The notes under the pieces are model-generated. The model was given only the letters and a program-made list of their open reading frames with translations, had not been told where the DNA came from and did not search any database. The position numbers were made by a program, and so were the translations under genes. Below, piece after piece: positions 50,109 through 53,742 of a stretch of DNA of 64,000 bases (the first letter of the stretch is position 1; each line of letters starts with the position of its first letter). Origin of the DNA: Actinomycetes bacterium (GTDB lineage: Bacteria; Actinomycetota; Actinomycetes; JACCUZ01); assembly GCA_038246545.1 (NCBI GenBank), contig JBBRVW010000025.1, positions 3,864 to 67,863 of the forward strand, given 5' to 3'.

Positions 50109-50327
50109 ATGGGCATCGGGGTCAGCATCTTCCTCATCGCCGTCGGCGCCATCCTCGCCTTCGCCGTGAACACGACCGTCTCCGGTCTCGACATCAACGT
50201 GATCGGCTACATCCTCATGATCGTCGGGGTGCTCGGTCTGATCATGACTGCGTTCATCTGGGGCCCGCGCAACCGCGCCCGGGGTGACGTGGTCGAAGAG
50301 CGCCGCGTCTACGACGACCGCGTCTAG
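50109..50327 (+). CDS. Small two-TM membrane protein (DUF6458-like)
   Basis: ATG 50109 is preceded by GGAGGAA. MGIGVSIFLIAVGAILAFAV...VIGYILMIVGVLGLIMTAFIWG. Confidence 0.75.
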   Translation: MGIGVSIFLIAVGAILAFAVNTTVSGLDINVIGYILMIVGVLGLIMTAFIWGPRNRARGDVVEERRVYDDRV

Positions 50328-50380: not shown

Positions 50381-50412
50381 CAGCACGTCCGGAACTCGGA
50401 AAGGAGCAGCCC

Positions 50413-50760
50413 ATGACACGCCGGCGCGACCGCCGGGGCGGTCCACGGGTCGGCCGAGGGTCGATCAGCACCGCGCTCGTCCTCATGGCCGTGGGCGGCG
50501 TGCTCGCCATCGGAGTCAACCCGCCCACCGTCGTCGAGAAGTACCTCGACCTGCTGGACCTCGGTCTGATCCTGGTCTGGTCCGGCATCCTGCTCGTCGT
50601 GATGGAGGTCGTCATGACCCGACGGCCGCGCTCGGCCCGTCGGCCGCGCCGCTCGGCCTGGGACGACCGCACCGACCAGTGGTACGAGCAGGACGTCCAC
50701 CGGCCGGGCTACGCCGGCTGGACGACGAGGCTGCCCACCGTGCGCGACGAGGGTCGCTGA
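50413..50760 (+). CDS. Small two-TM membrane protein (distant paralog of 50109..50327)
   Basis: ATG 50413 is preceded by AAGGAG. ...ISTALVLMAVGGVLAIGVNPP...LGLILVWSGILLVVMEVVM. Confidence 0.65.
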   Translation: MTRRRDRRGGPRVGRGSISTALVLMAVGGVLAIGVNPPTVVEKYLDLLDLGLILVWSGILLVVMEVVMTRRPRSARRPRRSAWDDRTDQWYEQDVHRPGYAGWTTRLPTVRDEGR

Positions 50761-50865
50761 CCGCCGAGTACGCCGACAGCTGGTACGCCGACGCGACGTA
50801 GAGCGTCGCCTCAGCCGCACCGATGCAGCGCGCCTCGCTCCCGAAGGCACCCGGAGGTCGTTGCT

Positions 50866-52467
50866 GTGGGGGATGGTCGAACGGTTCCGTGTGACCGCAG
50901 GCGCTGGCAGGCTCGGCCCGTTCTGGCGCGCGCGCTGTCATTGAGTGTGTTCGTGGTCCCGGTCGGCGGGTCCTACCTCGTCACGCGCCTCGCGGCACCG
51001 TTCGTCACCGACCTGCCGATGGCCGGTCGGATCATCGCCCTGGGCGTCCTGGCACTCGTCGTGGGCCTCACGGCGGAACGGATCTTCCGCCGGGTCCTCC
51101 CACTCGTCGCGCTCCTGCGGATGACGATGCTGTTCCCGGACCACGCACCTTCGCGGTTCAAGCTGGCGCGGGCGGCCGGTCACACCCGGATCCTCGAGGA
51201 ACGGGCACGCACCCATCCCGGCGAGACGGCCGGTGACGCCGCGACGCGCATCCTCGGACTTCTGACCGCGCTGGGCGCGCACGACCGGCGTACCCGCGGC
51301 CACTCCGAGCGGGTCCGGGTCTTCACCGACGTCGCCGCCGCCGAGCTGCACCTGCCCGCGGGGGCGCGCGACCGGCTGCGCTGGGCGGCGCTGCTCCACG
51401 ACCTCGGCAAGATCGGCGTCCCCGCGGTCGTGCTCAACAAGCCAGCCAGCCTCGATTCCGACGAGTGGGACTCGATCCGCCGCCACCCCGATCAGGGTGC
51501 GGTGCTGGCCGCCCCGTTGATGGCGTGGCTCGGCGAGTGGGGCGCCGCGATCCCCCAGCACCACGAACGGGTCGACGGCAAGGGCTACCCGCTCGGCCTG
51601 GCCGGCCACGAGATCGCGCTGGCAGGACGGATCGTCGCGGTCGCCGACGTCTTCGAGGTCATGACCGCGGCACGCAGCTACAAGCGGCCGATGTCGGTCG
51701 CGGCGGCCCGCCGCGAGCTGGCCGACGCGGCCGGGACGCAGCTGGACTCCGCCGTCGTGCGCGCGTTTCTCGGTGCCAGCCTGCCGCGCGTGCTGTGGGC
51801 GGTGGGACCGCTGGCGCTCCTGATGAACCTCCCGTTCCTGCGCCAGCTCGCCGAGGCCGGCCGGGTCGTCGAGCAGGTCGGCAGCACCGCCGCGGGTCAG
51901 GCCGCCACGGTGGCCGTCGCAGCGACGACCGCGGCGGTCCTTGCCGTGCCGGCGGCAAGCCCGGTCGTGTTCGCCGATCACGACGTCCCCCAGCCGCGCA
52001 ACCAGGGCCACACCTCAGTTCTCGGTGCCTCGGGCGGGGCGGCACCGTCGGCCACCGCGCATCCGGCCAGCCTGAGGTCGCCTCCGGCCGGCCCGGACTC
52101 TCGTCGTAGCCCGCGACCGGGCGATGCGGCCACCGGGCCGACGTCGTTCGCCAGCACGGCCGCAGGCCGGGTCCCTGCCCTGCCCGGTCGCGCGAGCCTT
52201 CCCGAAGCACCCGGGCCGTCGACCGAGCCGGTCGCCGGGACACCGTCCGTGCCGGCAGTGCCCGCGTCGTCGACGGTGCCAGACGTACTGGTCAGGGCGA
52301 GCGAGCGTCAGCGCGTCCCACGCCTGAGCCCTCCACGTCGACAGCGCCGGTACCAGTCCCCGGCATCGCGCCGGTCTCGTTGGGGACCGCCGCCAACTTC
52401 GCGGTGCTCGCCGGGTCGGCGATCACGAACACCGGCCCCACCGCGATCACCGGCTCGATCGGGCTGA
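50866..52467 (+). CDS. Membrane-bound HD-GYP domain protein (cyclic-di-GMP phosphodiesterase family); C-terminal boundary doubtful
   Basis: N-terminal TM segments. HD-GYP core GHSERVRVFT...ALLHDLGKIGVP...HHERVDGKGYPLGL...VADVFEVMTAARSYKRP. After this come more hydrophobic segments and a Pro/Ser/Thr/Ala linker. The last ~55 codons are Arg-rich junk, while another frame continues the linker. Confidence 0.8.
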   Translation: MGDGRTVPCDRRRWQARPVLARALSLSVFVVPVGGSYLVTRLAAPFVTDLPMAGRIIALGVLALVVGLTAERIFRRVLPLVALLRMTMLFPDHAPSRFKLARAAGHTRILEERARTHPGETAGDAATRILGLLTALGAHDRRTRGHSERVRVFTDVAAAELHLPAGARDRLRWAALLHDLGKIGVPAVVLNKPASLDSDEWDSIRRHPDQGAVLAAPLMAWLGEWGAAIPQHHERVDGKGYPLGLAGHEIALAGRIVAVADVFEVMTAARSYKRPMSVAAARRELADAAGTQLDSAVVRAFLGASLPRVLWAVGPLALLMNLPFLRQLAEAGRVVEQVGSTAAGQAATVAVAATTAAVLAVPAASPVVFADHDVPQPRNQGHTSVLGASGGAAPSATAHPASLRSPPAGPDSRRSPRPGDAATGPTSFASTAAGRVPALPGRASLPEAPGPSTEPVAGTPSVPAVPASSTVPDVLVRASERQRVPRLSPPRRQRRYQSPASRRSRWGPPPTSRCSPGRRSRTPAPPRSPARSG

Positions 52468-52988
52468 GCCCGGGCACGTCGGTGACCGGGTTCCCGACCG
52501 CCCCGACCAACGGCACCATCAACCCTGCAGACGGCGTCGCGTCGCAGGCGAAGACCGACCTGGCCGGCGCGTACGACGCCGCCGCGAGCCGGGCGACCAC
52601 CGCCACGATCCCGACCGGGCTCGGCGGTACCACCCGGACGCCGGGGGTGTACGACTCGGCTTCGGGGACGTTCGAGCTCACCGGAACCGTGACCCTGGAC
52701 GCGAAGGGCGACCCGAACGCCGTTTTCATCTTCAAGGCTGCGTCCACACTCGTGACGGCGTCCGCCAGCCGGGTGAACCTGGTCAACGGTGCGCGCGCGG
52801 CCAACGTGTTCTGGCAGGTCGGCAGCTCGGCGACGCCCGGGACCTACTCGGTCCTCCGTGGCAACGTCCTGGCTCTGACGTCGATCACGGTCACGACAGG
52901 GGCGACGGTGGACGGCAGGATGCTGGCCCGCAACGGCGCGGTCACGCTGGACAGCGACATGATCACCCGCACGCCGGGAGGCCAGTAG
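52380..52988 (+). CDS. DUF3494 (ice-binding-like beta-solenoid) domain, without its own signal peptide or credible start
   Basis: LGTAANFAVLAGSAITNTGPTAITGSIGLSPGTSVTGFP...GDPNAVFIFKAAS...ANVFWQVGSSAT...GRMLARNGAVTL. The only start in frame is a TTG at the first conserved residue. The same frame is open upstream and reads ...ASARPTPEPSTSTAPVPVPGIAPVS. Confidence 0.75.
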   Translation: MGTAANFAVLAGSAITNTGPTAITGSIGLSPGTSVTGFPTAPTNGTINPADGVASQAKTDLAGAYDAAASRATTATIPTGLGGTTRTPGVYDSASGTFELTGTVTLDAKGDPNAVFIFKAASTLVTASASRVNLVNGARAANVFWQVGSSATPGTYSVLRGNVLALTSITVTTGATVDGRMLARNGAVTLDSDMITRTPGGQ

Positions 52989-53076
52989 CCCGAGGGGCGG
53001 GCGTCGCCGTCGGCCGCTCGCCTCGCGGATCGGGGGACCACGACGCCTTCGCGTGCCATCCGGCCTGACGAGCGGC

Positions 53077-53742
53077 TCAGCCCAGCGACGCCGGTAGGTC
53101 GACGGCCCGCGACAGGGCGGCAAGCTCGGCGGCCGACTGGTACGGATCGCGGCGGCGCAACACCTCGGCGGCCTCGAGATGCGCCGCGAACGGCGCGCCC
53201 ACCTGCGCGGCGAAGGCCTCCAGCAGGCGCACCAGGGCCGGTCGGAGGTCGTCGGCGATCCCCACGGCCGCGAGCATGCCGTCGGTCACCACCACCTGGG
53301 CGAGGATGACCGCGGTCATGGCCACGTCGAGGGCGGCCGGTCCGGGCCTGGCGTTGGACCAGTCGATGACGACCGGCTCCGGCCCGCGGAGGATCACGTT
53401 GAGCGGGTGCAGGTCGAGGTGCAGCAGCGACTCGCCCGGTGCGGCACCCGGCCAGTCGAGGGCGTGCAGCCGGTCGTGCAGCCCGGGGAGCATCGCCCCG
53501 CCCTCGTCCGGAGCCAGCCCGCCGACCAAGGCCTCGGCCAGCGTCGGGCCGTCGACGCGCTCCATGACGATGTCGGGGCCGGCCGCGTCGTGGACGACCG
53601 GCACGGGGTAGCCGAGGGCGGCGACGGCACGCAGCGTGGCCGCCTCCTCGACGGCGGAGCGGCCGTCGCGGTAGCGCCGCAGCACCAACCCGCCGGTGTA
53701 GGCGAAGACGTCGGAGTCGCGGCCGGACCCGAGCAGGTCCAT
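53077..53742 (-). CDS. Aminoglycoside phosphotransferase (APH) / choline-kinase-like family protein
   Basis: ATG 53742. LLHLDLHPLNVIL (Brenner-like HxDxxxxN) and VVIDWSNA. Confidence 0.8.
   Translation of the reverse strand: MDLLGSGRDSDVFAYTGGLVLRRYRDGRSAVEEAATLRAVAALGYPVPVVHDAAGPDIVMERVDGPTLAEALVGGLAPDEGGAMLPGLHDRLHALDWPGAAPGESLLHLDLHPLNVILRGPEPVVIDWSNARPGPAALDVAMTAVILAQVVVTDGMLAAVGIADDLRPALVRLLEAFAAQVGAPFAAHLEAAEVLRRRDPYQSAAELAALSRAVDLPASLG

Follow-up and report, generated by a model that had tools for sequence, protein, structure and literature searches.

An actinobacterial gene for a predicted membrane HD-GYP phosphodiesterase with a C-terminal DUF3494 domain, probably broken by a one-base deletion

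Two reading frames at the locus and their intact counterparts

The window analysed here is a stretch of 64,000 nucleotides of an actinobacterial contig, and the parts of the gene described below lie on its forward strand. The upstream open reading frame (50866-52467) starts with GTG and encodes 533 aa that include an HD-GYP domain. As an earlier note on this DNA had described, its translation continues after the HD_5 match through two hydrophobic stretches (residues 306-325 and 346-364) into a Pro/Ser/Thr/Ala-rich linker, which is delimited from the translations at 51958-52379 and broken by a change of frame, and ends in an Arg-rich tail. This out-of-frame tail, put at about 55 codons before, counts exactly 53 (codons 481-533), occupies 52306-52467 together with the TGA stop, and has no counterpart in the orthologs. 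The 480 codons before it (50866-52305) form the native-frame part, comprising the N-terminal anchor, the HD-GYP domain, both hydrophobic stretches and the larger part of the linker, and are 91% identical to an intact ortholog (G001) over residues 1-476.

A DUF3494/ice-binding-like beta-solenoid domain follows in the -1 frame (52380-52988), without a start codon, signal peptide or membrane anchor of its own. The first ATG, GTG or TTG of this frame is the TTG at 52380, which codes for the L of LGTAANFAVLAG. The domain thus begins at its first conserved motif with this TTG as the sole available start, as had been claimed, and no hydrophobic signal peptide precedes it in the frame translation. Upstream, the frame is open from 52110, directly after a TAG at 52107-52109, and this stretch of 90 start-free codons, also noticed before, reads ...ASARPTPEPSTSTAPVPVPGIAPVS. 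The neighbouring genes encode an acyl-CoA dehydrogenase, a DUF6458 protein, an APH-like kinase and a thioredoxin-NHL protein; no functional link between them and the HD-GYP/DUF3494 gene was found, and the downstream neighbour is not the same in L015.

The earlier note had suggested looking for uninterrupted HD-GYP and DUF3494 reading frames in relatives, and a single unbroken ORF of 670-741 aa was found in four related species: G001 (736 aa, 91% identity), L015 (741 aa), G020 (708 aa) and G005 (670 aa). Orthologs at at least 71% identity were present in five of the 25 searched genomes of the bacterial family, with the genome of the window counted among the 25, and a full-length match was obtained at 5 of 77 loci in a species-representative collection. 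In a three-way DNA alignment with G001 and L015, one base is missing from the window between 52306 and 52307, where G001 carries an A and L015 a C. The extra base of both close orthologs sits precisely at the frame change, which had been expected within 52290-52325 and attributed to a 1-nt indel, and both expectations held. Restoring the frame from the GTG at 50866 gives 480 + 1 + 226 = 707 aa, the same length as the database ortholog P0004, so that the single protein proposed earlier was right in kind and only slightly too long at about 730 aa. The dN/dS of the linker is near 1 (0.99 against G001 and 0.73 against L015), indicating that the linker sequence is weakly constrained.

Taken together, the HD-GYP ORF and the start-less DUF3494 frame are two parts of a single gene, and the explanation as a whole, namely a broken ancestral gene for a membrane HD-GYP phosphodiesterase of about 707 aa, is likely. 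In an annotation, the two ORFs would best be entered as a single frameshifted gene instead of two separate proteins.

The deletion and the state of the DUF3494 half

It had been left undecided before whether the indel was real or artefactual. Contigs from three studies cross the deletion site without gaps, namely X1 (depth 19.6), X2 (27.3) and X3 (4.87), and X3 differs from the window by two SNPs, which indicates an independent, different population; a further contig, X7, stops at 52308 and does not bridge the site. The identical truncated 533-aa product occurs in three data sets, and together with the three gap-free studies this favours a real deletion over an assembly slip. If the missing base were instead an error in the deposited assembly, the gene of the organism would be intact. 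This is conceivable inasmuch as the site is covered by contigs alone, of which X1 and/or X2 may be the assembly's own source and X3 is shallow, and as this gene is frameshifted at several places in the related genome G002, in a way that resembles assembly noise. However, three assemblies from three studies concur with no gap, one of them with two SNPs, no homopolymer lies in the sequence context of the site, and the window genome, in 67 contigs, reaches a completeness of 98.88%, unlike G002 (77%, about 20 contigs). We therefore consider such an error improbable. Contigs drop minority variants, and an intact allele may accordingly be present in the population.

A real deletion raises the question of what has become of the severed half. 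The DUF3494 half retains 91-93% identity to the domains of G001 and L015 and carries neither stops nor further indels. Its dN/dS of 0.39-0.45, compared with 0.21-0.34 among intact pairs, and its lineage-specific synonymous and non-synonymous changes (6 and 8 in the window, 9 and 8 in G001, 8 and 5 in L015) are based on few changes and have low power to separate a recent break from continuing selection. The domain departs from one of the 71 invariant columns, with P in place of L, and the same is true of 11 of the 38 intact members in a leave-one-out control. Secondary decay was thus not found in the stops, indels, dN/dS or invariant columns of the orphaned half, and on this sequence evidence the break is recent.

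The DUF3494 half is most likely silent, given that it lacks a start, a ribosome-binding motif and an export signal. It has also been considered that the split is tolerated or adaptive and that two working genes exist, with the TTG at 52380 serving as the start of a cytoplasmic DUF3494 protein. The stop-free frame without further indels and the dN/dS below 1 would agree with this, but a recent break explains the missing decay equally well, and intact relatives show similar counts. Moreover, no Shine-Dalgarno-like motif was found before the TTG, and the start would coincide with the first conserved residue of the domain and leave no export signal. A scan of 50600-53200 for promoters and terminators returned nothing, and no promoter-like site for a second gene was thus seen, although shuffles of such high-GC DNA are expected to give none either, which makes the scan uninformative. 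Two working genes are therefore very improbable. The full-length protein could also be restored by slippage during transcription or by a programmed -1 frameshift of the ribosome, and a -1 shift anywhere within 52110-52465 would indeed connect the frames. Yet this stretch holds no classical X XXY YYZ slippery heptamer in the upstream frame, the overlap of the two frames has no A/T run of at least 5 or G/C run of at least 6, and the orthologs need no shift, which argues that frameshifting is not an inherited mechanism. A rescue of this kind is extremely improbable, and a recently broken gene with a silent DUF3494 half is the reading followed below.

Catalytic domain and membrane topology

The HD-GYP domain spans residues 138-297 (51277-51756) and matches Pfam HD_5 with an E value of 2.6e-29 (score 102.6 bits, threshold 27.2, aligned to positions 9-170 of the 170 in the profile). 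HD-GYP domains, the less studied class of c-di-GMP phosphodiesterases, are defined by an HD dyad and the motif HHExxDGxGYP. Here the translation contains LLHDLGK and HHERVDGKGYP, and H178, D179, H232, H233, E234, G238, G240, Y241 and P242 do not vary across 87 sequences of the family. The best PDB sequence matches were 5z7c (1.4e-30), 4mcw (2.3e-24) and 4r8z (5.3e-20). An AF2 model of residues 1-390, built with the 87-sequence alignment (pLDDT 80.2, pTM 0.71), matched the folds of 9rbz (Z 22.7, 202 residues aligned, rmsd 4.3), 4mcw (Z 21.3, 250 aligned, rmsd 9.8) and 4r8z (Z 21.0, 197 aligned, rmsd 2.8). As the catalytic motifs are intact, the domain is probably an active hydrolase of c-di-GMP or a related cyclic dinucleotide. 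The best sequence match, 5z7c, is a cGAMP-specific enzyme, and the candidate substrates are c-di-GMP or cGAMP.

Two predicted N-terminal TM helices (about residues 24-45 and 53-71) with a short loop lie at 50935-51078. Their family-averaged Kyte-Doolittle (KD) peaks are 1.68 and 2.20, and AF2 places helices at residues 18-47 and 52-89 with pLDDT 84-97. K+R residues are sparser in the loop (1.13 per 10 aa) than ahead of TM1 (2.04) or behind TM2 (2.54), a pattern which fits an N-terminus and an HD-GYP domain inside the cell.

Of the two hydrophobic stretches after the catalytic domain, H3 (residues 306-325, LPRVLWAVGPLALLMNLPFL, 51781-51840) probably represents the final helices of the cytoplasmic HD-GYP fold and not a membrane span. 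Its hydropathy is below the usual threshold (KD peak 1.55 in 39 fusion proteins, median 1.49 in the 87 family sequences), AF2 splits it into two short helices (306-313 and 315-320, pLDDT 75-85), and alignments to soluble HD-GYP structures continue to model residues 315-321, inside H3. G314 and P315 are invariant in the 87 family sequences. H4 (residues 346-364, AATVAVAATTAAVLAVPAA, 51901-51957) is a candidate single crossing of signal-anchor type before the linker, with a KD peak of 1.91 in the 39 fusion proteins and a family median of 1.73, and it seems to resemble the signal-peptide h-regions of stand-alone homologs. AF2 leaves it unmodelled (pLDDT below 50). In the full-length ortholog model from 39 close sequences (pLDDT 57.5), residues 305-499 are below 50, and a deeper run with 87 sequences improved residues 1-343 and again left H4 unmodelled.

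The DUF3494 domain itself is matched by Pfam Ice_binding (PF11999) at 52404-52967 over all 208 profile positions (1-208), with an E value of 1.7e-60 and a score of 204.7 bits (threshold 28.7). The NCBIfam equivalog IBP_CFB scored below threshold (107.5 against 400), so the domain is not that equivalog. PDB matches were 6eio (7.1e-56) and 5uyt (1.3e-49). The DUF3494 fold is a beta-solenoid with a flanking helix, and in the ortholog model strands extend over residues 512-701 while a helix occupies 557-575; pLDDT is mostly 88-96 in this block.

In the orthologs the DUF3494 domain comes after the membrane protein body, and in the intact protein it is likely to be extracytoplasmic. This location is favoured by three observations: in paralogs that share the N-terminal body, the C-terminal module is of the PASTA, fn3, Big_9/Big_13, PKD or cadherin-like type, stand-alone DUF3494 relatives of 77% and 66% identity (L020 and L034) carry N-terminal signal peptides, and H3 does not appear to be a span. 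Modules of the PASTA, fn3, PKD, Big and cadherin-like types are typically extracytoplasmic. In a four-helix topology, by comparison, H3 and H4 would form a hairpin, and the linker and DUF3494 would be cytoplasmic in the intact relatives. Four hydrophobic peaks are indeed present, and the KD value of H3 reaches 1.85 in the window's own sequence. There is little charge bias about H3 and H4, with a nearly equal K+R content per 10 aa in the H3-H4 loop (0.84) and in the 20 aa after H4 (0.65). Some close DUF3494 proteins, namely the nearest tandem ones, which come from Micromonospora, lack an annotated signal peptide. Against these points stand the lower family median of H3, its division into helices of 8 and 6 residues, the reach of the soluble-structure alignments, the end modules that paralogs carry at the DUF3494 position and the signal peptides of the stand-alone relatives, and we regard the four-helix arrangement as unlikely. 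The layout given in the earlier note, with a cytoplasmic HD-GYP domain, TM segment(s), a linker and an outside DUF3494 domain, is thus favoured, except that its TM segment(s) are best read as one crossing, without H3.

A recurrent fusion and its relation to known systems

Ice_binding and HD_5 occur together in 42 of the best 120 protein clusters, and also in two full-length representatives at 50% clustering (P0158 and P0246). As far as database sequences go, the fusion is recurrent and genuine. In the literature searched, no description of an HD-GYP and DUF3494 fusion was found, in agreement with the impression in the earlier note that the combination is undescribed; Galperin and Chou reportedly surveyed HD-GYP domain architectures in 2022, and a survey of this kind may list it. 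The fusion shares with its paralogs a body of two TM helices, an HD-GYP domain, a conserved SLPR..W..GP..LPFLR motif, a second hydrophobic segment and a Pro-rich linker. This predicted architecture makes it one of the variants within a large membrane HD-GYP family of actinobacteria whose C-terminal modules are swappable.

We propose that the ancestral single gene encoded a membrane HD-GYP phosphodiesterase of about 707 aa. Its N-terminus would lie in the cytoplasm, followed by two TM helices, the cytoplasmic HD-GYP domain with its terminal helix H3, and one crossing by H4. Beyond H4, a Pro/Thr/Ser linker of about 140 aa would lead to the C-terminal DUF3494 domain, which probably lies in the cell-wall zone beyond the membrane. 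The 1-nt linker deletion at 52306^52307 shifts the frame in this lineage, and the present product would be the 533-aa enzyme only, with all membrane helices, the catalytic domain and a nonsense tail.

The C-terminal module possibly, though somewhat doubtfully, tunes the phosphodiesterase as a sensor or contact domain; if it serves as an input, the enzyme of this lineage would be uncoupled from that input. A more specific and more tentative suggestion is that DUF3494 may serve a receptor-type HD-GYP phosphodiesterase as its input or contact domain outside the cell, with the enzyme first and the sensor last, and that this lineage is a natural uncoupled variant. If this were true, binding of ice, polysaccharide or a surface outside would directly tune c-di-GMP breakdown inside, DUF3494 would gain a signalling role, and the variable C-terminal modules of the actinobacterial family would constitute a new class of sensor domains. 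To our knowledge, HD-GYP input domains are N-terminal to the enzyme and mostly cytoplasmic. An arrangement with the enzyme first and a probably extracellular module last would wire outside cues to second-messenger turnover differently in Gram-positive soil bacteria. Up to now, DUF3494 has been viewed as a domain of ice binding or of adhesins, many DUF3494 proteins stem from non-cold habitats, and its repeated tethering to a signalling enzyme suggests a further role. In the literature searched, DUF3494 appears together with c-di-GMP for a Marinomonas adhesin.

Compared with known systems, the protein has the same catalytic fold and motifs as the canonical HD-GYP phosphodiesterases PmGH (4MCW), PA4781 (4R8Z), V-cGAP3 (5Z7C) and Bd1817 (3TM8), with sequence E values of 1.4e-30 to 5.3e-20 and fold Z scores of 16.8-21.3. 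These solved enzymes are soluble and equipped with N-terminal REC or GAF input domains. In contrast, two N-terminal helices are predicted to anchor the present protein to the membrane, and the variable module is C-terminal, past another hydrophobic segment and a long linker. The best fold match is DvhD (9RBZ, Z 22.7), a LapD-like receptor of Desulfovibrio vulgaris with an HD-GYP domain. DvhD is reported to be an inner-membrane protein with an extracytoplasmic domain and a cytoplasmic HD-GYP domain, the latter predicted to be inactive and to act as a c-di-GMP receptor, and its periplasmic domain and a PAS domain precede the HD-GYP domain; the report on DvhD does not describe an HD-GYP and DUF3494 fusion (PMC10990149). 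Set against DvhD as described there, the present protein has intact catalytic motifs and its putative outside module last. The DUF3494 domain is homologous to the beta-solenoid domain of the secreted proteins 6EIO (antifreeze), 5UYT (ice-binding) and 4NU2. In contrast to secreted DUF3494 proteins, free or multi-domain, the fusion tethers this domain to a signalling enzyme, from which it has been severed in the window.

Reading frames and intact orthologs

In the window, the HD-GYP ORF (50866-52467, +, 533 aa) carries an HD_5 (PF13487) match at residues 138-297 (Pfam, E 2.6e-29). The -1 frame on the same strand stays open between 52110 and a stop at 52986-52988 and matches the Ice_binding (DUF3494, PF11999) profile over positions 1-208 of 208 (Pfam, E 1.7e-60); NCBIfam concurs at the domain level only. 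By translation, the earliest ATG, GTG or TTG of the DUF3494 frame is the TTG at 52380; its leucine belongs to LGTAANFAVLAG, with which the conserved part of the domain opens. Upstream of this TTG come 90 start-free codons of Pro/Ser/Thr/Ala linker text, and the HD-GYP ORF closes with 53 codons rich in Arg. These translations bear out an earlier note, which had described a DUF3494 frame starting at best from a TTG at its first conserved motif, open linker-like text upstream of it and an HD-GYP ORF degenerating into about 55 Arg-rich codons. Directly 5' of the HD-GYP ORF lie two small membrane-protein ORFs, at 50109-50327 (+; DUF6458 match, 8.8e-14) and 50410-50760 (+; a similar hydrophobic core, no Pfam match), both also kept 5' of the ortholog in G001, a genome of the same genus. 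The genes neighbouring the locus gave no functional hint.

Orthologs were searched with query residues 1-478 in 41 genomes, the window's own and 40 relatives, in a stricter first look whose tallies are therefore a lower bound; the set takes in two unpublished genomes, G016 and G038, which support none of the claims. Close orthologs were found in G001 (91% identity), G002 (90%), G020 (72%) and G005 (71%), and the remaining matches were paralogs at no more than 49%. The HD-GYP part continues into DUF3494 within a single ORF in G001 (736 aa), G020 (708 aa) and G005 (670 aa), as it does in a fifth species (L015, 741 aa). The species-representative collection held 222 stretches encoding a relative, reduced to 77 distinct loci, only 5 of which gave a full 707-residue match (L014-L018, all from uncultured Actinomycetota MAGs). 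At the DNA level, a pairwise alignment to G001 and a three-way alignment that includes L015 show one added base in both orthologs at a single column (A and C), placing the missing base of the window between 52306 and 52307; the read-through product would have 707 aa, as does the database ortholog P0004. The HD-GYP ORF and the DUF3494 frame are thus one gene split by a 1-nt indel, as the earlier note had proposed, and the uninterrupted orthologs it suggested looking for exist at 670-741 aa. The G002 copy (L003 535-3615, -) is open for 1026 codons, but departs from the true frame beyond the second hydrophobic stretch and regains it within DUF3494, which takes two or more frame changes in roughly 500 bases; its frame shifts several times across the linker and the DUF3494 start. 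The copy was treated as uninformative. G002 has about 20 contigs at 77% completeness.

The one-base deletion and its consequences

The stretch is contained in runs of 12 studies, and we compared contigs of four runs from four studies with the window. Contigs of X1 (depth 19.6) and X2 (27.3), from different studies and either possibly the source of the window DNA, match the window across 51700-52900 without a difference or a gap. The X3 contig comes from a third study and covers 51850-52739 with 0 gaps (depth 4.87); its two substitutions, 52008 C>T and 52479 T>G, mark it as a separate population that carries this deletion too. The X7 contig ends at 52308, short of bridging the site. Three data sets encode the 533-aa truncated product in identical form, and there is no homopolymer at 52306/52307. 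On this evidence, which is of contigs rather than raw reads and so loses minority alleles, the deletion is very probably real. At 52802-52847, a 45-base stretch, the summed contig depth jumps in all four runs (in X1 from 19.6 to 152.5), where numerous short contigs of other organisms match the conserved DUF3494 core only (AANVFWQVGSSAT), a motif that recurs very widely across soil and sediment communities.

Within the overlap zone, 52110-52465, the upstream frame contained no X XXY YYZ heptamer, homopolymer runs were absent, and no Shine-Dalgarno-like motif was found 5' of the TTG at 52380. No stops or additional indels were found in the DUF3494 half. Its dN/dS was 0.45 against G001 and 0.39 against L015, with 0.21-0.34 between intact-gene pairs, and lineage-unique synonymous/non-synonymous changes in DUF3494 numbered 6/8 in the window, 9/8 in G001 and 8/5 in L015; window-unique changes in the N-terminal 365 codons were 10/6. 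One of 71 invariant DUF3494 columns is broken in the window (Leu to Pro in SSATLGT) and none of 109 N-terminal ones, and in a leave-one-out control one DUF3494 column was likewise broken in 11 of 38 close intact members. From these figures, either the break is recent or relaxation escapes notice in so few changes. The gene in this window is a broken copy, and its lineage probably still produces the enzyme, 533 aa long with a nonsense tail and without the DUF3494 module.

The fusion and its wider family

With the G001 protein as query, PF13487 and PF11999 occurred together in 42 of the best 120 clusters (90% identity), drawn from NCBI, ENA, JGI and Logan and in some cases automatically named, e.g. 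'Ice-binding-like/HD domain'. With scoring restricted to the C-terminal half, fusions made up 3 of the best 120, the others being different DUF3494 architectures. The 1.84 billion cluster representatives at 50% identity were searched exhaustively, and the best 150 included two fusions of full length, P0158 and P0246, along with a single fragment, P0253. P0169 aligns at 44% identity across both domains, indicating that the fusion predates the close clade. HD-GYP-DUF3494 proteins are thus already in public databases under automatic names; no description of one was found in the literature searched, the main HD-GYP architecture survey lying outside that search.

Related proteins share a body in which two N-terminal helices and HD-GYP are followed by SLPR.LWA.GP....LPFLR, conserved almost without change, then by another hydrophobic segment, rich in Ala and Val, and a linker rich in Pro; they differ in the end module: PASTA (P0188), Big_13 (P0195), Big_9 with pentapeptide repeats (P0212, P0255), six fn3 (P0227, P0256), PKD (P0339) or cadherin-like/Big_9 arrays (P0352, P0357). 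In the close paralogs P0161 (592 aa) and P0195 (790 aa), the terminal repeats carry a Cys pair, F.C..DG..W..CTSP, matched by Pfam Big_13 in P0195 and by no Pfam family in P0161. A paralog from the window's own genome, likewise a membrane HD-GYP gene (L091 1929-3983, -, contig C4; 45% identity), encodes a product that ends in a long Pro/Thr linker and GTVTGTVG-type short repeats without a named domain.

Predicted topology and function

Averaged over the family, hydropathy peaks at TM1 (1.68), TM2 (2.20), H3 (residues 306-325; 1.55) and H4 (residues 346-364; 1.91). K+R density per 10 aa falls from 2.04 ahead of TM1 to 1.13 in the loop and rises to 2.54 beyond TM2, which places the N-terminus and HD-GYP inside, as the earlier note had proposed for HD-GYP; around H3 and H4, where it is 0.69, 0.84 and 0.65, it does not discriminate. 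An AF2 model from 87 diverse sequences (pLDDT 80.2, pTM 0.71) resolves H3 into two short helices, 306-313 and 315-320, split at an invariant Gly-Pro, and its alignments to the soluble HD-GYP domains of 9rbz, 4mcw, 4r8z and 9rc0 extend to residues 315-321. From these features and the family median hydropathy of H3 (1.49), we argue that H3 is probably not a membrane span, so that of the 'TM segment(s)' the note had allowed, H4 would be the single crossing and the linker and DUF3494 would lie outside. PASTA, fn3, PKD, Big and cadherin-like modules are typically extracytoplasmic, and stand-alone DUF3494 relatives L020 (77% identity) and L034 (66%) have N-terminal signal peptides with h-regions resembling H4; both the paralog modules and these signal peptides support an outside location. 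Against it count H4, left unmodelled by AF2, and the tandem DUF3494 proteins of Micromonospora, leaderless as annotated. The outside placement that the note had proposed is nevertheless favoured as the likely one. The closest stand-alone proteins, P0006, P0017 and P0014 (Micromonospora and relatives, 72-78% identity), are such tandem duplications and have no signal peptide as annotated, reflecting either mis-called starts or a leaderless subgroup.

The catalytic HD-GYP motifs are intact in the window and invariant across the family, and we regard the protein as a predicted active cyclic-dinucleotide phosphodiesterase whose C-terminal module would be an outside contact or sensor domain; coupling of this module to the phosphodiesterase is speculative. 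The nearest solved relatives by sequence are phosphodiesterases active on c-di-GMP or cGAMP, and by fold the AF2 model best matches 9rbz, the receptor-type DvhD (Z 22.7), followed by 4mcw (Z 21.3), 4r8z (Z 21.0) and 9rc0 (Z 19.5). The DUF3494 domain is homologous to the solved ice-binding proteins 6eio (7.1e-56) and 5uyt (1.3e-49); ice binding by it is putative.
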